Assembly: GCA_008080735.1 (NCBI GenBank)
Contig: SHMW01000027.1
Location: 35,250 to 45,573, forward strand
Direction: 5' to 3'
DNA length: 10,324 nt
Source: Promethearchaeota archaeon
GTDB lineage: Archaea; Asgardarchaeota; Lokiarchaeia; Sigyniarchaeales; SOKP01
Positions 460 to 10,020 of this stretch are shown here, piece by piece. Each line of letters begins with the position of its first letter. The stretch's first letter is position 1. The notes beneath the pieces are model-generated. The model was given only the letters and a program-made list of their open reading frames with translations, did no database searches and had not been told where the DNA came from. The position numbers and the translations under genes are program-made.

Positions 460-1113
460 CTATTTATCCTCGATTCCTAATTGAGAGATCATTTCTTTTT
501 TCATTTCCTCAACATTTTTGGGTAAGCTGAAAGTTTCAGCATATTTCTCAGTTGTTGTTAGTTCAGAAGTGCGACCCTTTTTTACAGAATTAATAAATCC
601 GTTATCTTCTAAGTATTGTACATGTTCATAGGCACCACTTCCTCGTATTTTAACAAGTGTAGATTTTAAAATGGGTTGTTTCAATGCAATAATAGTAAGC
701 GTGCGTAAATATTTTTCTGCCATCCCCCCACCCTCTGCGAATTGGGAAATCGGATCTGTGTATTCACTTTTTATCTGCATTTGATATTTATCTCCTATAT
801 TTATTATAGTGAGAGCTGTGGTTCTTTTATTATATTCTTCAACTAATTCATCCATATATTTTTGGACATCAGATTTAGAAATATCCAGTCTTGTATATAA
901 TTCTTCAACGGTTAGTGGTTCTCCGGAAGCATATAGCGCGCCTTCTATAAGATTTCTTTGATATACTTCAATATCAATGTCGATATTTGCCTCTTCTTCA
1001 GTATCCTTACTGGATTCGAAGAGGTCTTGAGTCGCTATTAATTTATCATTTTGGGTATTGTCAAGATTTTGATCGAGTTCCTTTTTTAGCTCTTCTTTTT
1101 CATTATTTGACAT
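460..1113 (-). CDS. scpB: Segregation and condensation protein B (KITE subunit, tandem winged-helix)
   Basis: ScpB motifs IEGALYASGEPLTVEEL, YQMQIK, LRTLTIIALKQPI, IRGSGAYEHVQYL..GFI, GRT..L.TTEKYAETF. It has a ~50-aa acidic N-terminal extension and lies directly downstream of scpA. Confidence 0.95.
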   Translation of the reverse strand: MSNNEKEELKKELDQNLDNTQNDKLIATQDLFESSKDTEEEANIDIDIEVYQRNLIEGALYASGEPLTVEELYTRLDISKSDVQKYMDELVEEYNKRTTALTIINIGDKYQMQIKSEYTDPISQFAEGGGMAEKYLRTLTIIALKQPILKSTLVKIRGSGAYEHVQYLEDNGFINSVKKGRTSELTTTEKYAETFSLPKNVEEMKKEMISQLGIEDK

Positions 1114-1154: not shown

Positions 1155-2159
1155 TCATGCTATTGATATGTTTATATCTTTGAATTCGTCATCTTGATTT
1201 AGTTTAATTCTATTGTTCGTGCTCAAAAACATCAAAGCTAAAAACATTCGTATAAATTCGTACTTTCTTCCTAAAATGCTCTCTTCATCTTCATTAATTA
1301 GTTTGACCAAGTTATAAAATGAAGTTTTATCCTTATTTTCAAGTTTAATTTTCGTCTTGATTTTATTGAACCATGAATCGTGCAGTTCCTCTACTGATTG
1401 TTCTCTCCCGCTAATATGTTTGAGGAGCTCTTTTGGAAGGCTCGCATTAGACTTTTCTTCTTTACGCTGTTCTTTCTCTTTGTTCCGTTTTAAACGTCTC
1501 CGTTTTAATTTTTCCTTTTTTTGCATTGTTTCGATGATCGCAGCCCGCATTGCGTCATATAACTCATCTTTACTTGTCATTTTCATTTTCGGTTTTACTG
1601 GTTGGGAGAGGGTTTTCGGGATTTTTCTTCTGGTTCTTTTTCTCATTTCTTCTATCTTTTCTTGTTTCTGTATCTCCTCTTCTTGTTTTATAACGCTTGT
1701 GATTTTGTCATGATGTAAGGAAGCCGAAGTTTTTAAGGCAATGCCAGAAATTTTATAATTTATAAAATCCTCTCTTAGCATTTTATCAAAAAATTTATCA
1801 ACCAATGAAGATAAATCATAAAAGGCTACATCAGAATCTTTTGCTAAATCAATATTCAATAGGGTAGAGTATGGAGGTTTATGCCAGAATTTCAAATCTG
1901 TTTTATCTTTCCTAAAAAGAGGGCCTTTTTCATCCTCCTCTACCGCGCCCTCTCCAGCATTTAACTCTTCGTCTAAGACATCTTCTTTAGTTCGGTCGAC
2001 AAACTCAGGATGAGAAACTACTCCTTCTAATATTTCTATGATTTCATTTTTTTTGCTTCCAGACGGTAGTGAGATATTATTAGTTGAAGCAAAATCACGC
2101 AATTCATTAACTGTCCACTCCCTAAACTCATATTCTACTTCTTCATCCTTTTCTGACAT
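1155..2159 (-). CDS. scpA: ScpA-type kleisin with extra N-terminal Rho_N/SAP-like domain
   Basis: Kleisin N-domain-like block YDLSSLVDKFFDKM...INYKISGIALKTSASLHHDK. Central TSKDELYDAMRAAI resembles the archaeal ScpA T-x-x-EL-x-x-A block. C-terminal winged-helix signature FIRMFLALMFLSTNNRIKLNQDDEFKDINI. Adjacent to scpB and near smc. Confidence 0.88.
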   Translation of the reverse strand: MSEKDEEVEYEFREWTVNELRDFASTNNISLPSGSKKNEIIEILEGVVSHPEFVDRTKEDVLDEELNAGEGAVEEDEKGPLFRKDKTDLKFWHKPPYSTLLNIDLAKDSDVAFYDLSSLVDKFFDKMLREDFINYKISGIALKTSASLHHDKITSVIKQEEEIQKQEKIEEMRKRTRRKIPKTLSQPVKPKMKMTSKDELYDAMRAAIIETMQKKEKLKRRRLKRNKEKEQRKEEKSNASLPKELLKHISGREQSVEELHDSWFNKIKTKIKLENKDKTSFYNLVKLINEDEESILGRKYEFIRMFLALMFLSTNNRIKLNQDDEFKDINISIA

Positions 2160-2284: not shown

Positions 2285-5200
2285 ATGATTAGTAATAAAA
2301 AAAAAGAGAAAAATAAACTCAAATCATTTAAGATTTTATATATTTATCCTTTTGAATCTTTTGGCAAGCCGAGCTTCTTGGTTAATTTTTTAAGAATCTC
2401 CAATTACTTGAATTCGAAAAAATCTAGTTTTACAAATGTTTCGATTAAAGAAGAATATTTAGATTTGAGATTTGAACACTTACCAAAATTTATTCCAGAA
2501 AATCTGTCTCTGTACAGAGATAAACTCAATAACCTATTATGTCAAACTAAAAAACAATTTAAATTTGATCTGGTCGCAATTTCTTGCTATAGCTCGTTTA
2601 ACTATTTAAATACATTGGAAGTGGCAAGTATGATTAAATATGAAATTGCTCCAGAGAGTATCATTGTTGTAGGCGGCGTACATGCCAGTATGAGACCTCA
2701 AGATTTCCAACCGGGCGGATTATCTCGCCTTATAGAGAAAGAATATCCGAAAAATACCACACCCTTCGATTTTTTAATTCAAGAAGAGGGTGAGATTTCA
2801 TTTTTTAAGTTAGTGAGAGATCTTATCAATAATAACATATCAATTCGAAATAGTGTCTATGAAGAATGTATTATCAGAGAAAGGGAAATAGTAAATAATC
2901 TGGATGAAATACCAATCATCAATCCCGAGCTTTATGAAAAATATCGAGAAACTCTTAAAATTCATGATAATTTTTATTTGGATTTTTCAAGAGGTTGTTT
3001 ATTCAGGTGTAATATATGTCCAACGTCACAAGACCATATGAAATCATACAAAAAAGTTCGCTATAAATCTATTGACCGATGCATTGAAGAATTAAAGGTG
3101 ATTAGAGACACTAAGTGGCTTGAAGTTAAATCCGTATACATTGTAGATTTAACCTTCTTACCTAAAAGGAGTAAGAGAAAGGAGTTTTATTTAAAACTGA
3201 ATAATTCAATAAATTCAGAAGGGCCATTACCTTTTAATCTTTATCTCAACGAGAGAATTGACCTATGTTGGGATGAGGATTTGATTTGGTATAAAAAGTT
3301 AAACATTATCCCTCTTATCGGCTTAGAAACGGGTTCAAAAACATTGTTGTGGAAGATGAATAAGATTCTGGGGAAAAATGATAACCAAAAAAAATTAAGA
3401 ATTGCAAGGTATTTAAAAAGGGCGGAACAAATTATAGTGAAATGTAATGAATTAGATTTAAAAGCTGTTTTCTATTATATGATGGGCGTTCCGGGAACAG
3501 ATAGCAAGATCTTTAAGGAAAACAGAGAATTCTTCCTAGAACCGAGATTTCAGGGTGAATCCTTGATCGAGAAATATGATATTAATTTAAGCATCTCAAA
3601 ATATATAGCCCTGTGTGGTTCAGAAATATATAAAAATGCTCATAAAAAATATAACGCGAAAGTTTATTGTAAGGAGTGGTGGAAACGGTTCCATAAATAC
3701 TCCCCATTTTTAGGAGCTTTAGTGGATCCAGAAGAACATTATTCATTGCTTAATTGCTTAAATCACGAATATGGTTTCATTAAACAATTATTTAAAGCTC
3801 AATTAAGAAGGAAAAATAAATTTTATTCCATACCGAAATTACTAATCCAAAAAAGAAATTTTGAATTGTTAAAAAAACTTTATAAGGAAATAGGTGGTGC
3901 TGAAGAGCTAGCAAAAAAAAGAAAAAATCCCATAAAAAAATCTATCAAAATACTATATATATATCCTTATGAATCGGTCGGGAAAAAGTTTTGCCTTCCC
4001 GGAATTGCCAGAATCTCAAGTTTTATTAATTCAAAGAAAGAGATAATAAACGCAAACATCGAGGCTGAGATTCTTGATCTGAAATATGAGCTATTGCCAG
4101 AATATATTCCCGAAAATCTAAGTGAATATAGAAAGAAGGTAAGAAAAATTTTAAAACATCTCAATGAGAAATTCAGATTCGATATTGTCCTGATTATGAA
4201 CTTCGATTCATTCAACTATACAAATACTCTGGAGGTAGGGAACATAATTAAACATAACGTAAATAAGAATGCGATTATTGTTGTTAATGGTTTTCATCCA
4301 ACAACTTGTCCTGAGGATTTTGAAATTAAAAATATTCCCGTGTACTTTAATAAAACTTATCCAGAAAATACAACCCCTTTCGATTTCATAATTTTAGAGG
4401 AGGGTGAAATTCCATTTTTAAACCTTGTCAAAAAATTTAGTAATAATGAACTTTCTGTAAGAAAATCTATTGAAGACCCATCAAAAGTGTTAGGTCCAAT
4501 GAATATTGATGATTTAGATGAAATCCCAATAATAAATTTAGAGATTTTTAAAAAATATGCTGATAAAATTCAAAATTTTTACGTAGAATTTAATCGTGGA
4601 TGTATGTTTAATTGTAACTATTGTTCACTTTCGGGTTATAATATTCCATCTTTAGGGAAAATGCGTTTCAAATCAATTAAGAAATCTATCGAAGAGCTTC
4701 GTATATTGAATGAGACAGATTGGTTAGATTTACAGCATGTATTTATTATTGATTTAGTGTTCTATCCAAATAGAAAAATGAGAGAACAATTTTTTGAAGG
4801 ATTAGAGCGTATGATCGAGGAGGTAGGTCCTCTTTCTTTTCAAATTTATGTAATGGATAGAGTAGATATATGCACTCCCTCAGATCTTGAAAAATACAAA
4901 CAATTAAATATAATTCCCCATATTGGACTTGAATCTGGTGCCAAGCAAAATCTTTTCAATATGAATAAGATTCTTGGAAAGAAAAATGAGAACTATAAAA
5001 AACGATTGGACCTATTTTTAGAAAAAACGATTATGCTTTTTGAAAAGATAAATCAATTGGATTTAGACGCTGTGTTTTTCTATTTAATAGGTCTCCCAGG
5101 AGAAAATGAAGAAATAATAAAAGAAAATTTTCGATTCTTTTTTAATCCCAAATACGATGGTAAATCTCTAATGGAAAAATACAAAATCAACCTCAGTATT

Positions 5201-5527
5201 TCAAAATATGCTGCGCTTCCTGGATCTTATTTCTATGAGCATTCTGAGGAGGATTTTGGAACTAAAATTCATTTTCCAGAGTGGTGGAAATATCTTCATA
5301 AATATAAAAAATATTTTCCAACAATCGTGGATCCAAGTGTAGATCTAAATTTAGTTGAGTCCTTAAGAAAAAACCATAAGTTAGTTAAGAAAATATACTA
5401 TTCTCAAAAGGATTTAAAGAATAGTTATTATACTCCAATCAAGGCTTTTATTCAGAAACATGGGGAGGAAAACATGATCGAAGTTTATGAAAAAAGAGAA
5501 TTGATTAAAAAGGAATTATTAAAATGA
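2285..5527 (+). CDS. Tandem (double) cobalamin-binding-domain radical SAM protein (class B rSAM-like), two complete modules
   Basis: Module 1: B12-binding-like FDLVAISCYSS...IIVVGGVHAS...EEGE, SRGCLFRCNIC (C238/242/245, nt 2996-3019), IGLETGS, YMMGVPG. Module 2: FDIVLIMN...IIVVNGFHPT...EEGE, NRGCMFNCNYC (C773/777/780, nt 4601-4624), IGLESGA, YLIGLPGE. The Cys motifs are offset by 535 aa. Confidence 0.9.
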   Translation: MISNKKKEKNKLKSFKILYIYPFESFGKPSFLVNFLRISNYLNSKKSSFTNVSIKEEYLDLRFEHLPKFIPENLSLYRDKLNNLLCQTKKQFKFDLVAISCYSSFNYLNTLEVASMIKYEIAPESIIVVGGVHASMRPQDFQPGGLSRLIEKEYPKNTTPFDFLIQEEGEISFFKLVRDLINNNISIRNSVYEECIIREREIVNNLDEIPIINPELYEKYRETLKIHDNFYLDFSRGCLFRCNICPTSQDHMKSYKKVRYKSIDRCIEELKVIRDTKWLEVKSVYIVDLTFLPKRSKRKEFYLKLNNSINSEGPLPFNLYLNERIDLCWDEDLIWYKKLNIIPLIGLETGSKTLLWKMNKILGKNDNQKKLRIARYLKRAEQIIVKCNELDLKAVFYYMMGVPGTDSKIFKENREFFLEPRFQGESLIEKYDINLSISKYIALCGSEIYKNAHKKYNAKVYCKEWWKRFHKYSPFLGALVDPEEHYSLLNCLNHEYGFIKQLFKAQLRRKNKFYSIPKLLIQKRNFELLKKLYKEIGGAEELAKKRKNPIKKSIKILYIYPYESVGKKFCLPGIARISSFINSKKEIINANIEAEILDLKYELLPEYIPENLSEYRKKVRKILKHLNEKFRFDIVLIMNFDSFNYTNTLEVGNIIKHNVNKNAIIVVNGFHPTTCPEDFEIKNIPVYFNKTYPENTTPFDFIILEEGEIPFLNLVKKFSNNELSVRKSIEDPSKVLGPMNIDDLDEIPIINLEIFKKYADKIQNFYVEFNRGCMFNCNYCSLSGYNIPSLGKMRFKSIKKSIEELRILNETDWLDLQHVFIIDLVFYPNRKMREQFFEGLERMIEEVGPLSFQIYVMDRVDICTPSDLEKYKQLNIIPHIGLESGAKQNLFNMNKILGKKNENYKKRLDLFLEKTIMLFEKINQLDLDAVFFYLIGLPGENEEIIKENFRFFFNPKYDGKSLMEKYKINLSISKYAALPGSYFYEHSEEDFGTKIHFPEWWKYLHKYKKYFPTIVDPSVDLNLVESLRKNHKLVKKIYYSQKDLKNSYYTPIKAFIQKHGEENMIEVYEKRELIKKELLK

Positions 5528-5580: not shown

Positions 5581-8500
5581 TTAGGTTTTAGAAACAGCTT
5601 CTTCAGTTTCTAACAAGCGTTTTGCTTCCTCTTCTAAATCTACGCTAAAAATATCTGTTATTCCGCTTTCTTGCATGGAAACGCCATATATCCTATCAGC
5701 ATTCACGATATTCTCTTCACGATGGCTGATGATAAGAAATTGGGCTTGTTCAGCGAATTCTTTTATTACCATTGATACGCGATGTACATTCGGGCCATCG
5801 AGAGCGGCATCAATCTCGTCCATTACGTAGAATGGCGCGGGATAGAACTCTTGGACGGCAAAGATGAAGGAGAGCGCTACGAGCGTTTTCTCACCCCCGC
5901 TAAGAATTTCCAGCGAAGCGATCTTCTTTCCTCGTGGTCGAGCCTCAATGCTTATCCCACCTTCAAATGGTTTATCGGGGCGGTCTAAAATCATTTTGGC
6001 TGAGCCCCCAGGAGAAAGCTTCTGGAAGATTTTGGAGAATTCTCTGTTAATTTCGTGATATGATTTCATGAACGTTTGAGTCTTTTCCAGTTCTATTTTC
6101 TCTATAGCGTCTAAAATTGATTTCCTTTCACGTTGGATGGTCTGTCTTCTCATATCAATCTCATCGAAGCGCTCCTTTACTGAATCATATTGTTTTATAG
6201 CTTTAAGATTCACGGGTTCAAGAGCTTCTTTCTTTTTAGTAGCACCTTTGATATCAGAGTGTAAATTTTCTTCTGAAATATCTTCTGTAAGATGTGGTAG
6301 AGCCCCATAATCTTTCGATCTCTGATAAAGAGTTTCAATTTGATCATTAGTCGCAATTTTTTTCGATTCTAAATTATTTAATTTTGATTGCTTCATTGAA
6401 AGGTCTGATTTCAGATCGGTATACATTTCTTGATATTTCTTTTGCTTATTCCACGATTCATCTTTCTCTTCCGTTAATTTATCAATCTCCTGTTGCTTTT
6501 GAGTTTTTTGTGTATTAACCTCTTGTAGATTCTCTTTGATTATATCGATTTTTTCATTCAAGTTAGTGATTTGGTCTTTAGTTTGAGAGATTTCCTTCGA
6601 GATGGACTCAATTCTGTCTGCTCTCTCTTTGCTACTTTTTAAATCATTTAATTTATTCTGAGCATCTTGAAGATTTTTATTTAGTGTATTTAAGTCTTTT
6701 TGGGCGTTTTTCTGAGCGTCAATTTCCTTATTTTTTTCGTCTCTTAATCCATTTACCTCTTCTTCGAAAGTTTCGACCGATTTTTGGATCTCTGAGATGT
6801 TTTCATTGAGTTCATCTATTTCTTTTTGATTTTGTTTAATTTTATTCTCAGAATCGAGATTTTCACTCTTAAGGTCCTCAATAGTATTAATTATTCTTTG
6901 AATATTCTCTAAAGAACGGAGTTTATCTAAAATAGACTCCAGTTTTTCATTCTTATCATCGATTTTATCCTGTAAATTTCCCGTTTCTTCCCAAAATCTT
7001 TCTTTTTCATTATTAAGATCTTCAATTTCCCCGTTAATACCCTTTTTTTTCTGTTCTAATGAGTTAATTTTGTTATTTATCTCAGAAATACTTTTTTTCT
7101 TATCATCAATTATGCTTTTTGACTTTTTTGTTGCCTCTTCAATGGCATCTATATTATCAAAAAGGGATTGAATATCTCGTAGATCTTGCAGTTTTGATTG
7201 TATTTTTTCCAGTTGTCTCTGTTTTTCATCAATCTTTTCTTGAATCTCAGAGATCTGATCCCAATGAGTTTCTTTAGATAATTTCAATTGATTTATTTTT
7301 TCTTCTAATTCCCTCTTTTCTTGTAATTTCTTTTCAATGACTTTATCCCTTTCTTGTTCTTCCGCTCTTAATTCTTGATTTTTCGTATTTAAATCATTAA
7401 TATTCTCTTTAACCTTGTCAAGTTTGCTCTTGGAAATTGATAAATCTTCCGAATCGTGTGATTTTTGGATCTGAAATTCTGAAATCTGTTTTTCTATATC
7501 ATTCAAATCATCTTCTTGACTTTTTATGTTATTAATGATTTCCTCTAGTTGTTTGTATAAATCCTGACTTTTTGAGACGGTAAGTTTTCTTAAAGAAATA
7601 TGCATATTTTCTAGGATCTCCATTAAATCTTGTACAAAATTATCAAAATTAGAGGTAGAATCTTGAACAGCTACATCGACAGAATCTTTAACTTTCGTTA
7701 TCAATTGTCCAATGGTTTCATCAGCATTATCCGTGAACAAAGATAAAGTTTGCATGATGGAATTTAGCATTTTATCCGTCTCCTCAGTTTCTTCCACTTC
7801 ACAGCTCACATCTTCAACAGTCTTCATCATATCGATTACATCTAATATGAATTTTTGAAAATCCTCGGCAGACATTTCAATTGCTTCGGCGTTTGATTGC
7901 TGTATATTACTTTTTATAGACTCGACGGAGATGTTTATATTCTGGGTGAGCATGTTCAAAATTTGTAAAATCCCTTCAATATCTTTTTTATCTTTTTGAT
8001 ATTCTTCCTCTGCACGATCTATCCTACTCTGTGTTTTTTGTTTCTCTGCTTTTAGTTCATTTAAACGCCTCAACACATTTTCTTTTCGTTTTATTAGGTT
8101 ATCGCGTTTTTTATCGATAGAAGAAATATTCTCTTTTAAGGATTGAATTCTCATAGAAAGATTTTTCTCTTCTCTTTCCGATTCTTTTAGATCTTTTTCA
8201 TAAAGATTTTCCCGAGTTTTAATATTACTTATTTTTGATTGATTATCATTAATTTCCGAGATGATTGACTCGAATTTCATCTGAAATAGTTCCAAGTTTT
8301 TCTCATTTTGTTGAAATTCAAAATTTCTGTTTTTTAATTCTTTACGTAATTTTTGAATTTTTTCCAATATTTGCTCTTTAGTTTGGTTTAATTCTTTTAA
8401 TGCAGCTTCAATATCTTTTCCCTTACTAAGAGATTCAATTTTAGATTTCATTTGCTTTTTTTTTTCTTGCAAATCTGTAATATTTTCATTATGCATTTTG

Positions 8501-10020
8501 ATCTCTGTGTTAATGGATGAAAGATTAGAATTAAAAGTGGATATCTTCGAATTAATCTGGTTAATCTCCTCTCTTTTTGAATCTATTTGATTCTCGAGTA
8601 ATCTTCGATTTTCGTTTTCTTTTGAAATCTGGTTTTTTAAGTTATCAATTTCCGACCGTAAATTTTCTTCTTCTTGTTTTTTTTTTTTTATGGCTTCCTG
8701 AATGCTTTCGGCATCGCCTTTAAGAGTATTTAATTCATTTTGTAATTTTTCTTTTTTTTCCAGATTTTTCTTTATACTATTCTGTAAATGTGTTATAGTT
8801 GATTCCTTAGAAGAGATTTGTTGTTTTAACTCCGATATATTAGCCTTTAGCTTACTCTTTTCTTTTTCCTTAGAATTGATTTTATTGTCAATTGCTGTTT
8901 GGTTCTGTTGTCGTTTGTCGATCTCTTGTTTCGCGGTCTCCAGTTTTGATTCAATCATTTCAATATTTTCTTCTGCCTTAGAGATTAACGATTCATAAGT
9001 CTGATCTTCCTCTAATTGTGTTTGCTGACTTTCTAGTTCAGTCTTTTCTGCGTTCAATTTTTTAAGCGATTTCTCTGCTAATTTTAACGTTGTTTCATTA
9101 GACGACAATTCTGTTTTAAGTTCTGTTATATGTTCATTAATCTCATCTCGTTCCTTTTCTTTCTGATTTATAGAGTTTTGTATATTTTCCATTACCAATG
9201 ATTCTTGTTCTACGATATCTTTTTGACGCCCTATTTTTTCCTCAAGTTCGTCAATCATCTTATTGGTTTCTTCAATTTGTGCTTCGATAGTCTCCTCTTC
9301 TTCTTTTAATTTTGAAATCTTTAACGCAATTAATTTGGATTTTAAGTTATTAATTTCTTGTTCCAGTTCTTTCCAGGCCAAGGCATCATTTTTTTCCTTT
9401 TCGACCTTTTTTAGTTGAGAAGAAACTTCCTTAAAAATTGCTTCAAACTGTCCCAAATCTCGCTCTGCTTTCTCTAACTCCTTCATAGTCTCTTCCTTCA
9501 TATCATCATATTTCTGAAGGCCGATTAATTCCTCTATAAATTCCCGCCTTTCAATTGTACCCATATGAGTTAATTCAACAATTTTTCCTTGCAATACAAA
9601 TTGATTGCTTCCATCTGGATCTATATTCGCTGATGCTAATGTATCAAGAATTTGCTGCCGTGTGGTAATCTTATCATTCATTTTATATTTATTTCCTTTA
9701 TTTCTTCTCACCACTCGTGTAATCTGAAATTCATCAGTCCCTCCTGGGAAAATTCCTTCTGAATTGTCAAAATATAATGTTACAGATGCCCTATTACCTT
9801 CTTTATGCCCTCTCGAGCCTGCGAAGATAAGATCCTCCAGTTTTTCTGCCCTCATTGTCTTTTTAGATAGTCTGCCAAGTGCAAAACATAGTGCATCAAT
9901 TATATTAGATTTTCCAGCACCATTGGGGCCGACTATACAAGTAAAGCCTGGAGAAAGCCTAACTGTGACGGTTCTATTCCCGAATGACTTAAACCCAGTC
10001 ATACTGATTCTTTTAATCAA
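5581..10020 (-). CDS. smc: Chromosome segregation SMC ATPase, atypical (1479 aa, no recognisable canonical hinge)
   Basis: GFKSF, Walker A GPNGAGKSN, R-loop MRA..LEDLIFAG, Q-loop VLQG, the PVNLKAI..Y motif typical of Smc proper, signature LSGGEK, Walker B/D-loop YVMDEIDAALD, H-loop IISH, long heptad arms. TTG start, with an in-frame stop 7 codons upstream. Confidence 0.95.
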   Translation of the reverse strand: MIKRISMTGFKSFGNRTVTVRLSPGFTCIVGPNGAGKSNIIDALCFALGRLSKKTMRAEKLEDLIFAGSRGHKEGNRASVTLYFDNSEGIFPGGTDEFQITRVVRRNKGNKYKMNDKITTRQQILDTLASANIDPDGSNQFVLQGKIVELTHMGTIERREFIEELIGLQKYDDMKEETMKELEKAERDLGQFEAIFKEVSSQLKKVEKEKNDALAWKELEQEINNLKSKLIALKISKLKEEEETIEAQIEETNKMIDELEEKIGRQKDIVEQESLVMENIQNSINQKEKERDEINEHITELKTELSSNETTLKLAEKSLKKLNAEKTELESQQTQLEEDQTYESLISKAEENIEMIESKLETAKQEIDKRQQNQTAIDNKINSKEKEKSKLKANISELKQQISSKESTITHLQNSIKKNLEKKEKLQNELNTLKGDAESIQEAIKKKKQEEENLRSEIDNLKNQISKENENRRLLENQIDSKREEINQINSKISTFNSNLSSINTEIKMHNENITDLQEKKKQMKSKIESLSKGKDIEAALKELNQTKEQILEKIQKLRKELKNRNFEFQQNEKNLELFQMKFESIISEINDNQSKISNIKTRENLYEKDLKESEREEKNLSMRIQSLKENISSIDKKRDNLIKRKENVLRRLNELKAEKQKTQSRIDRAEEEYQKDKKDIEGILQILNMLTQNINISVESIKSNIQQSNAEAIEMSAEDFQKFILDVIDMMKTVEDVSCEVEETEETDKMLNSIMQTLSLFTDNADETIGQLITKVKDSVDVAVQDSTSNFDNFVQDLMEILENMHISLRKLTVSKSQDLYKQLEEIINNIKSQEDDLNDIEKQISEFQIQKSHDSEDLSISKSKLDKVKENINDLNTKNQELRAEEQERDKVIEKKLQEKRELEEKINQLKLSKETHWDQISEIQEKIDEKQRQLEKIQSKLQDLRDIQSLFDNIDAIEEATKKSKSIIDDKKKSISEINNKINSLEQKKKGINGEIEDLNNEKERFWEETGNLQDKIDDKNEKLESILDKLRSLENIQRIINTIEDLKSENLDSENKIKQNQKEIDELNENISEIQKSVETFEEEVNGLRDEKNKEIDAQKNAQKDLNTLNKNLQDAQNKLNDLKSSKERADRIESISKEISQTKDQITNLNEKIDIIKENLQEVNTQKTQKQQEIDKLTEEKDESWNKQKKYQEMYTDLKSDLSMKQSKLNNLESKKIATNDQIETLYQRSKDYGALPHLTEDISEENLHSDIKGATKKKEALEPVNLKAIKQYDSVKERFDEIDMRRQTIQRERKSILDAIEKIELEKTQTFMKSYHEINREFSKIFQKLSPGGSAKMILDRPDKPFEGGISIEARPRGKKIASLEILSGGEKTLVALSFIFAVQEFYPAPFYVMDEIDAALDGPNVHRVSMVIKEFAEQAQFLIISHREENIVNADRIYGVSMQESGITDIFSVDLEEEAKRLLETEEAVSKT
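6361..7329 (-). repeat. Exact 90-aa-period repeats in the SMC C-terminal arm strand (~4 copies)
   Basis: Trp at aa 920, 1010 and 1190 (CCA at nt 7261, 6991, 6451), with Ile at the in-phase position 1100. Example matches: INQLKLSKETHWDQ / IEDLNNEKERFWEE / VNGLRDEKNKEIDA / IDKLTEEKDESWNK, each followed by an in-register KL..L. Confidence 0.8.
7603..7980 (-). repeat. Two-copy, 71-aa-period helical repeat at the SMC apex (aa 681-806)
   Basis: Ungapped alignment of IEGILQILNMLTQNINISVESIKSNIQQSNAEAIEMSAEDFQKFILDVIDMMKTV with LNSIMQTLSLFTDNADETIGQLITKVKDSVDVAVQDSTSNFDNFVQDLMEILENM gives 11/55 identities by hand count and a conserved hydrophobic pattern. Confidence 0.75.
8137..9183 (-). repeat. ~97-98-aa tandem repeats in the SMC N-terminal arm strand (3 clear copies plus 1 partial)
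   Basis: An (L/I)S(S/N) anchor recurs at aa 305, 402, 500 and 597. Example matches: INQKEKERDEINEHITELKTELSS / INSKEKEKSKLKANISELKQQISS / IDSKREEINQINSKISTFNSNLSS. Confidence 0.7.

Follow-up and report, generated by a model that had tools for sequence, protein, structure and literature searches.

A hinge-less smc gene in an Asgard archaeon

The stretch of DNA analysed here, which at its full length of 10,324 nucleotides is called the window, comes from a Promethearchaeota archaeon of the order Sigyniarchaeales, and its principal gene encodes an SMC protein in which the alpha/beta hinge is absent and is replaced by a different, duplicated helical apex. Five large frames are present in the window: the open reading frame of 1479 residues that constitutes the smc gene, a plus-strand frame for a protein of 1080 residues, two further minus-strand genes, and a truncated frame at the 5' end. 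The start of the smc gene was taken to be the TTG codon at position 10020, so that residues 681-806 of its product (P0001), for which a preliminary description had proposed a novel apex domain, map to positions 7603-7980 on the minus strand. The parts of the gene are listed below; conservation is given throughout as the fraction of sequences that share the commonest residue, in an alignment of 106 full-length homologues that are 59-80% identical to the query.

5581-10020, minus strand: smc gene for the 1479-residue P0001, a hinge-less, long-armed paralogue, from the open reading frame, its translation and family models
9511-10020, minus strand: N-terminal half of the ATPase head, residues 1-170, with Walker A GPNGAGKSN; SMC_N at residues 2-136, family conservation 0.86-0.98
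7999-9510, minus strand: N-terminal arm strand, residues 171-674, about 500 residues with 97/195-residue periodicity, from coiled-coil composition, self-comparison and the AlphaFold2 helix 591-741
7816-7998, minus strand: apex repeat 1, residues 675-735, ascending tip helix with L688, L691, I695, K703 and the invariant D727, from hhalign; conservation 0.81-0.94
7786-7815, minus strand: acidic, variable hairpin turn, residues 736-745, with a modelled helix break at 742-745, from AlphaFold2 and the alignment
7603-7785, minus strand: apex repeat 2, residues 746-806, descending tip helix with S788, F792 and the invariant D798, from hhalign, the alignment and AlphaFold2
7501-7602, minus strand: junction from the apex to the C-terminal arm, residues 807-840, containing ..SLRKLTVSKSQDLYKQLEEI.., with a helix break at 815-816 (AlphaFold2); conservation 0.85-0.87
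6172-7500, minus strand: C-terminal arm strand, residues 841-1283, with 90-residue periodicity, from BLASTP and self-comparison
5584-6171, minus strand: C-terminal half of the ATPase head, residues 1284-1479, with LSGGEKT, Walker B FYVMDEIDAALD and the H-loop; SMC_N at 5656-6171, conservation 0.89-0.98

P0001 is a true Smc-type protein with heads of the canonical Smc type, as had been read from its motifs. The head is split between the N- and C-termini and contains Walker A, Q-loop, signature, Walker B, D-loop and H-loop, Pfam recognizes SMC_N at both ends (124.6 bits) and no other globular domain, and the heads match the head construct of Pyrococcus yayanosii Smc (5xei_A) with 394.6 bits and an E-value of 9e-117. 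Among the full-length family models, TIGR02168 scores 629.9 bits, which is above its cut-off of 567.35, and the archaeal-type model TIGR02169 scores 670.5 bits in four separate stretches, which is below its cut-off of 729.4.

Absence of the hinge and of a zinc hook

The Pfam hinge domain PF06470 gave no match at E<=1, neither with the whole P0001 nor with residues 560-900 alone, and neither precomputed nor fresh scans detected it in any of more than 120 homologues. A profile-profile comparison used the hinge regions of 11 canonical Smc proteins from Asgard archaea as its reference; against it, alignments of the apex reached hhalign probabilities of only 0.2% and 0.9%. The divergent hinge of the other SMC protein of the same genome, which served as positive control, was recognized by this profile with 90.5% and an E-value of 1.4e-6. 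Glycine and proline together account for 2 of 176 residues in the apex versus 19 of 186 in a canonical hinge, and the AlphaFold2 model of residues 590-900 contains no strand at all, which agrees with the earlier impression that beta-strands are lacking at the midpoint.

A zinc hook is likewise missing, as there is no CxxC anywhere in P0001, and the single cysteine within residues 600-900 (C740) lies in the variable turn. Rad50 models reach at most 113 bits with P0001 at cut-offs of 700-1087, and the ASRP model NF045487 reaches 169.3 bits at a cut-off of 300. MukB families were not among the general Pfam and NCBIfam matches, a search that included no profile comparison aimed at the MukB hinge.

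A duplicated and highly conserved tip

The two ungapped copies with a period of 71 residues and 11 of 55 identical positions, which had been noticed at the midpoint of the protein, could be reproduced. The best ungapped BLOSUM62 self-score within residues 641-840 is 84 at an offset of 71 (659-735 versus 730-806); shuffled sequences scored 34 +/- 5.8, and none of 300 shuffles reached 84. When a 35-sequence alignment was halved and the resulting profiles of repeat 1 and repeat 2 were compared with each other, hhalign aligned them with 98.8% probability and an E-value of 9.4e-17 in exact register (675-735 with 746-806). The only invariant columns of the family alignment, in which identity goes down to 18%, are D727 and D798, i.e. 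the aspartate of the shared F..F..D motif in each repeat. The junction residues L810 and L813 are nearly invariant as well. Between the repeats, the acidic linker EDVSCEVEETEETDKM is found at residues 736-751 as described, and the mean charge of residues 735-752 is -5; the turn varies in both length and sequence across the alignment.

With conservation values of 0.81-0.94 at residues 661-720 and 0.79-0.87 at residues 751-840, the tip is under strong purifying selection and is conserved on a par with the heads (0.86-0.98); the flanking arms range at 0.57-0.75, and the bin that holds the linker is at 0.66. Its composition also differs from that of the arms: the tip has a higher fraction of large hydrophobic residues (0.36-0.39 versus 0.26), fewer charged residues (0.24-0.27 versus 0.40) and far fewer basic residues (0.07-0.08 versus 0.17-0.19), and carries a mean net charge of about -16. 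Conserved hydrophobic positions amount to 2.74 per heptad in repeat 1 and 2.84 in repeat 2, compared with 1.6-1.8 in the arms. We infer from this pattern that each helix has an extra hydrophobic seam, which is what a hairpin would need in order to bury further surface, for example in a four-helix bundle.

Structure model of the tip

Residues 590-900 were modelled with AlphaFold2 on the basis of a 47-sequence alignment with 18-79% identity to the query. The model is all helix and has a mean predicted local distance difference test score (pLDDT) of 86, with values of 90-95 in the arm parts. Four helices are seen (591-741, 746-764, 766-814 and 817-899); the tip break at residues 742-745 (model residues 153-156) lies inside the acidic, length-variable linker, where the pLDDT has its minimum of 61, and a further break marks the junction at residues 815-816 (model residues 226-227). 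According to this model, the duplicated repeats would constitute the ascending and the descending strand of the tip, which pack against each other, and the whole segment would form one continuous two-helix hairpin. The idea of a novel apex domain is thus retained in so far as the apex is different and all-helical; a separate globular bundle is not what the model shows, as the tip consists of the terminal ~70 residues per strand of the continuous hairpin.

In Foldseek and VIA-align comparisons, the entire model of 311 residues superposes on single-chain helical hairpins. Cytoplasmic domains of chemoreceptors were matched (2ch7_B with template modelling (TM) scores of 0.59/0.60, 2ch7_A with Z 15.2 over 304 of 311 residues, 9a69_B with Z 15.6), and so were dynein stalks, the MukB elbow (6h2x), and arm fragments of Smc (5nnv_D with Z 13.7, and 5xg2) and Smc5/6. 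Since helical rods often reach Z-scores in this range, these matches establish geometry and not kinship. A profile search with residues 590-900 against PDB sequences returned generic coiled coils only (tropomyosin and similar), and a feature search of the ESM Atlas with the apex returned only unnamed clusters. The prediction of a homodimer from two copies of residues 640-850 gave a score of 0.03, which is no answer and was used neither way.

Lengthened arms

The AlphaFold2 model and its matches to Smc arms show a long, intramolecular, antiparallel coiled coil for the modelled segment, residues 590-900. In a BLASTP comparison with the canonical Smc of a relative, only residues 981-1475 of P0001 could be aligned (to residues 695-1196, with 31% identity), and the start of this alignment at residue 981 means that there are about 165 extra coiled-coil residues between the tip and the point where a canonical C-terminal arm begins. 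Self-comparison gave a mean score of 0.755 at an offset of 90 in the C-terminal strand, with a shuffle maximum of -0.06, and offsets of 97 and 195 far above shuffles in the N-terminal strand. Judged by these periodicities, the arms are composed of repeated modules of 90-97 residues and, with about 500 instead of about 340 residues per strand, reach about 1.5 times the usual length, which suggests that they were lengthened by matched tandem duplications. The wild-type arm of B. subtilis Smc has 344 residues and a length of ~47 nm (PMC5344682). Growth by modules of 90-97 residues would fit the discrete length regimes that were found experimentally in B. subtilis.

Distribution of the hinge-less SMC and loss of the canonical Smc

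In a survey of 400 genomes of the phylum, which were searched with the apex profile and with the hinge model, the apex was found in all four families of the order to which the window belongs, namely in 113/134, 1/1, 14/14 and 2/4 genomes (130/153 besides the genome of the window, G000). Outside this order, only 2 of 246 genomes had a match, and at least one of them resembles a mixed bin, with three matches on three contigs. A word-indexed search yielded at least 169 proteins of 1470-1487 residues; those that carry a label are assigned to Lokiarchaeota, Promethearchaeota or Lokiarchaeia, and a few to Thor or Hod. When 1.84 billion representatives were searched exhaustively with residues 620-850, only 32 sequences were returned, including SMC proteins of 1464-1497 residues with 20-38% identity and a 1296-residue protein labelled Sigynarchaeota. 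The hinge-less SMC family is essentially confined to one Asgard order (with the labels Lokiarchaeia/Promethearchaeota).

In the preliminary description, P0001 was read as a true Smc with a replaced hinge that would define a non-canonical archaeal condensin. This reading is supported by every test applied here, except that P0001 is not simply the Smc of this organism with an exchanged hinge. Three closed genomes (G135, G138 and G143) encode on the same chromosome a hinge-less SMC and a hinge-bearing Smc of 1197-1206 residues; in these genomes and in several genera of the family of the window, a strong hinge (E ~1e-30 to 1e-35) lies in a frame of about 1200 residues, and a weak-hinge SMC is present there besides the hinge-less SMC. 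The canonical Smc of G135 scores 828.5 bits with TIGR02169 in a single stretch. In G135, G138, G143 and a fourth relative, G149, a separate ScpB gene lies beside each of the two Smc types. In a tree of head domains (26 rows, LG+C20), all hinge-less SMC proteins form one clade (89/100, stem length 1.01) that stands apart from the clade of canonical Smc proteins of the same order (96/100). As the hinge-less SMC coexists with a canonical Smc that has its own ScpB, it can be regarded as part of a separate, paralogous SMC-kleisin-kite complex, and we assign P0001, from its sequence relationships, as the SMC subunit of a third, lineage-specific complex of this kind.

The genome of the window itself contains a second SMC gene with a hinge, as had been thought worth checking, and this gene is divergent and of the weak-hinge type; a canonical copy was not found in G000. 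Its single hinge match (41.5 bits) lies in the 1153-residue protein P0005 on contig C7 (L010:5747-10393), in which PF06470 scores 36.7 bits, which is weak but real, and in which the heads are very divergent (TIGR02169 230 bits). In a search of PDB sequences, P0005 matched Smc, Smc1-4 and Smc5 about equally weakly. Following the two-complex scheme of the literature, from which the label is taken, P0005 probably belongs to the archaeal complex related to SMC5/6, in which it would have a kleisin and a kite of its own. Downstream of P0005 there are two small genes of 219 and 174 codons without any family match.

All six other genomes of the genus likewise have a weak hinge only. Among the family genomes with a hinge match, about 111 of 124 have only the weak hinge, many of them being more than 95% complete, and 13 have a strong canonical hinge. 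In addition, P0004, the ScpB of the window, is the single PF04079 match in G000, while relatives that have a canonical Smc show two or three. As there is only a weak hinge and a single ScpB, and as the remaining SMC_N matches are of the Rad50 type, this part of the family has lost its canonical Smc together with the ScpB that goes with it and has kept the hinge-less complex, which is the only condensin-type SMC left in this genome and in most of its family.

Fragments with SMC_N at contig ends of G000 were considered as a hidden canonical Smc, and this was rejected, as contigs C58 and C117 overlap into one Rad50 with a CPVC hook (C58:26258-27436 and C117:1-1593, with an overlap of 25 residues). 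Another contig (C46:7517-13064) carries two Rad50-like genes in tandem, with 909 and 839 codons and with cysteine pairs at mid-length (C..C and C......C).

Predicted kleisin and kite partners

The two further minus-strand genes of the window are the scpA- and scpB-like genes that had been recognized near smc:

1155-2159, minus strand: ScpA-like kleisin (P0003), 334 residues; Pfam SMC_ScpA (PF02616) at residues 197-333 with 26.7 bits at a cut-off of 24.6
460-1113, minus strand: kite subunit ScpB (P0004), 217 residues; SMC_ScpB (PF04079) with 119 bits, TIGR00281 with 102 bits

The N-terminus of the kleisin P0003 contains a helix-extended-helix motif of the Rho_N/HeH/SAP type (residues 12-45, window 2025-2126, Pfam E-values of 7e-4 to 1e-2, with Rho_N and HeH matching residues 15-45). 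It is followed by an acidic linker and may serve the kleisin as a DNA-binding module. In G135, G138, G143 and G149, a hinge-less smc, an orthologue of P0003 and a ScpB gene follow each other contiguously. We therefore predict from gene order and family matches that the partners of P0001 are a dedicated ScpA-like kleisin and ScpB.

Between smc and the kleisin gene, the window carries a plus-strand gene (2285-5527) for a 1080-residue protein that consists of two collinear modules for B12 binding and radical-SAM chemistry. Because smc, kleisin and scpB are directly adjacent in the four relatives, this gene can be understood as an insertion into the operon. Beside the canonical, hinge-bearing smc of G135 and G149 (L012:3177-7393 and L018:2373-6543), ScpB follows directly without a kleisin gene in between; weak ScpA-like matches exist elsewhere on these chromosomes, and the Pfam ScpA model is too weak to count kleisins.

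A protein family with two apex copies in tandem

The apex also occurs outside SMC proteins. A non-SMC family of 920-1180 residues (P0148, P0150, P0151, P0153; L019:1997-5122 on the minus strand, L020:2981-5746 on the minus strand, L021:3688-7044 on the plus strand) contains two tandem copies near the N-terminus, at about residues 53-225 and 315-472, the second copies having E-values of 1e-10 to 1e-20. These proteins were seen in no family other than the one to which the closed genomes belong, and a gene of about 470 codons without assigned family adjoins the tandem-apex gene in all three loci. After the apex copies, P0148 and P0153 have a middle part that does not look helical, a C-terminal coiled coil and a lysine-rich tail, which in P0153 gives a weak Pfam match to HC2 (histone H1-like). 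A structure model of residues 1-520 of P0148 (9-sequence alignment) had a pLDDT of 86.4 and a predicted TM score of 0.57, and its Foldseek comparison with TM scores of at most 0.25 was uninformative. The tandem-apex protein may be a partner that binds the tip or links it to chromatin.

Comparison with known systems

The Smc-ScpAB complexes of B. subtilis and Pyrococcus resemble the system described here in that ABC-type heads with all motifs, long antiparallel arms, and a kleisin and a kite alongside are present in both. In contrast to those complexes, P0001 lacks the alpha/beta hinge, has strands of about 500 instead of about 340 residues and a duplicated helical tip, stays below the TIGR02169 cut-off although it exceeds that of TIGR02168, and has heads that form a clade of their own; moreover, relatives have a genuine canonical Smc besides it. 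Rad50/SbcC and the ASRP proteins (ClsN, Sph) share with P0001 the SMC-superfamily heads and a small non-hinge apex at the hairpin turn, but they dimerise via a CxxC zinc hook, which in case of the ASRPs has been described (PMC9389158), whereas P0001 has no CxxC, is predicted to have ScpA and ScpB and not Mre11 as partners, and has heads that resemble those of Smc far more than those of Rad50. The bacterial SMC-like proteins MukB, MksB and JetC also have an unusual apex together with their own kleisin and kite subunits, but they keep a small alpha/beta hinge and use partners of the MukEF type, while the apex of P0001 is modelled as helical and its predicted partners are of the ScpAB type. The structural match of the P0001 model to MukB concerns only the coiled-coil elbow (6h2x) and reflects rod geometry.

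A short-armed bacterial repair protein of the SMC family, RecN, is reported to dimerise via an all-helical coiled-coil tip, with neither hinge nor hook, and is not known to have kleisin or kite partners. RecN models reach only about 20 bits with P0001. For the cytoplasmic signalling hairpin of methyl-accepting chemotaxis proteins (2ch7), on which the model superposes best over its full length, the likeness consists in a long two-helix hairpin that is rich in small and polar residues and that forms a homodimeric four-helix bundle. This likeness is one of architecture only, as there is no relationship in sequence or Pfam family, and it serves as an analogy for the mechanism and not as a sign of membership.

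Two reports are of special relevance for an SMC protein without hinge. A clade of hinge-less SMC homologues from marine Actinobacteria is known from metagenome proteins only (PMC12153180). These proteins belong to another domain of life, and neither a conserved duplicated tip nor long arms nor dedicated ScpAB partners have been reported for them; it is by this description that they are set apart here. In B. subtilis, a Smc whose hinge was replaced by a Rad50 zinc hook is described as a functional chimera, and arm length was found to be tuned in discrete steps (PMC5344682). The chimera demonstrates that Smc-ScpAB can work with a dimerisation module other than a hinge, but it is artificial and metal-dependent, while P0001 is natural, metal-free by sequence, and has arms that are about 1.5 times as long. 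In the literature on SMC evolution, Asgard and TACK archaea are credited with two SMC complexes, and there are hints that the SMC5/6 side underwent further duplications; a loss of the hinge is not mentioned. A description of the hinge-less lineage was not found in a full-text literature search and in the papers on Asgard SMC evolution, which is no proof of its absence.

A proposed closure of the SMC dimer and its alternatives

Chemoreceptor hairpins are obligate four-helix-bundle dimers, and a comparable arrangement is what we propose for the tip of P0001. The preferred mechanism is an apex homodimerisation, which we infer from the conservation of the tip, its extra hydrophobic seam, the analogy to the chemoreceptor hairpin, and the fact that a zinc hook can replace the hinge in B. 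subtilis. Two tips lying next to each other would form a four-helix bundle with a length of about 10 nm, which would take over the role of a hinge or zinc hook in closing the top of the SMC dimer. The SMC-kleisin ring or rod would be retained, and the complex would act as a motor that entraps DNA and extrudes loops, its arms measuring about 75-85 nm. Since the tip is acidic, it is unlikely to bind DNA as hinges do, and the usual hinge-DNA contacts would be lost or moved elsewhere, e.g. to the heads, to ScpB or to the SAP-like motif on the kleisin. Taken as a whole, this explanation, i.e. a third SMC-kleisin-kite complex with a homodimerising helical tip in place of the hinge, is in our view somewhat more probable than all its alternatives together. 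Several points weigh against it. The broad hydrophobic face would suit a heterologous partner, or a folding back within the molecule, just as well. The hairpin geometry comes from one AlphaFold2 model with moderate confidence at the tip (pLDDT 61-83), and the matches to rod-like helical proteins with Z-scores of about 15 allow the claim of a common arrangement only. Loop extrusion and DNA entrapment would follow from family membership alone, and a search for expression data of the smc gene found none. Moreover, 21 of the 134 family genomes are without an apex match; most of these are incomplete, but a few are more than 90% complete. Finally, the head tree does not resolve how the hinge-less clade branches relative to the canonical Asgard Smc clades.

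What alternatives exist for a tip that closes the dimer? The conserved, hydrophobic and acidic surface might in principle bind another protein or another part of the complex, candidates being the heads, the kleisin or ScpB after folding at the elbow, a basic chromatin protein, or the tandem-apex protein. Hinge-head contacts after elbow folding are generally known for cohesin and MukBEF, the strong acidity of the tip (about -16) would suit a basic partner, and the apex domain does occur twice in tandem in non-SMC proteins, one of which has a lysine-rich tail with a weak HC2 match. However, the tandem-apex protein cannot be a universal partner, as it is absent from G000, which has one apex match, and from its family, and the operon encodes no candidate partner beyond ScpA and ScpB. 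We therefore regard a docking function as unlikely, though worth keeping in mind, and it would not exclude a homodimerisation. It is also conceivable that the SMC remains open at the top, with each arm being a free hairpin and the dimer being held only by the ATP-engaged heads and the kleisin, without any closed compartment; the conserved tip would then serve the stability of the arms or signalling along the rod. The monomer model is indeed a self-sufficient hairpin, no method used here gave support for a dimer, and natural hinge-less SMC homologues have been reported elsewhere (PMC12153180). Yet if the tip were no more than a turn, there would be no need for some 140 residues to be conserved as strongly as the heads, or for two aspartates to be invariant; true variability is confined to the turn. 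The surplus of roughly one conserved hydrophobic position per heptad over the two-stranded arms implies a surface that is buried by something. For these reasons, an open top seems unlikely to us as well.

Much less needs to be granted to the view that the apex is an artefact or a product of decay, i.e. that the middle of the gene is misassembled, that the hinge is degenerate, or that the paralogue is decaying. The arms are internally repetitive, and Logan contigs from two runs of one marine-sediment study join position 7315 to 8332, thereby skipping 1016 nucleotides. The shorter side of this join has 22 letters and lies in repeat-rich sequence, and the skipped length is not a multiple of three; it is probably a repeat-driven assembly join and not a real deletion variant. 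An 868-nucleotide public contig of the same run extends unbroken over 7367-8234 with one mismatch, public contigs of two marine-sediment runs contain 87% and 71% of the sampled words of the gene, and a related strain in tidal-flat runs covers 7676-9131 at about 92% identity. Over 100 independent assemblies, three of them single-contig (closed) genomes, contain the same open frame of 1470-1500 residues, so that the misassembly that could have explained the missing hinge is refuted by the present data. With the strong purifying selection on the tip and a hinge-profile comparison that was negative while its control was positive, we consider an artefact or decay extremely improbable.

Implications for SMC biology

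In every textbook model of how SMC proteins act, the hinge is a dimerisation point, a DNA-binding site or a DNA gate, be it in ring entrapment, in gate opening, in hinge-DNA contacts, or in a folding at the elbow by which the hinge reaches the heads. The most far-reaching reading of the present data would be that the duplicated acidic hairpin is a new, metal-free and hinge-independent closure module of the sole condensin-type motor in more than 100 species, and that the tandem-apex proteins represent a wider tip-interaction system; we would put this at somewhat less than an even chance. If true, nature would demonstrate that the SMC hinge, together with its DNA-binding and gate functions, is dispensable, and arms of about 80 nm would exist on a complete SMC-kleisin-kite motor in the closest archaeal relatives of eukaryotes. 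The tandem module, of which one member has a lysine-rich, H1-like tail, would then define a wider system for the organization of archaeal chromosomes.

As the hinge-less complex is the only condensin-type SMC left in most of the largest family of the order, it presumably suffices there to maintain the chromosome. The system constitutes a natural experiment on the need for a hinge, on the tuning of arm length, and on the diversification of SMC proteins by duplication of whole complexes, in a lineage to which eukaryotic cohesin and condensin are thought to trace back. Since closed genomes are available for the order and the proteins are ordinary soluble targets, these questions can be tested directly.

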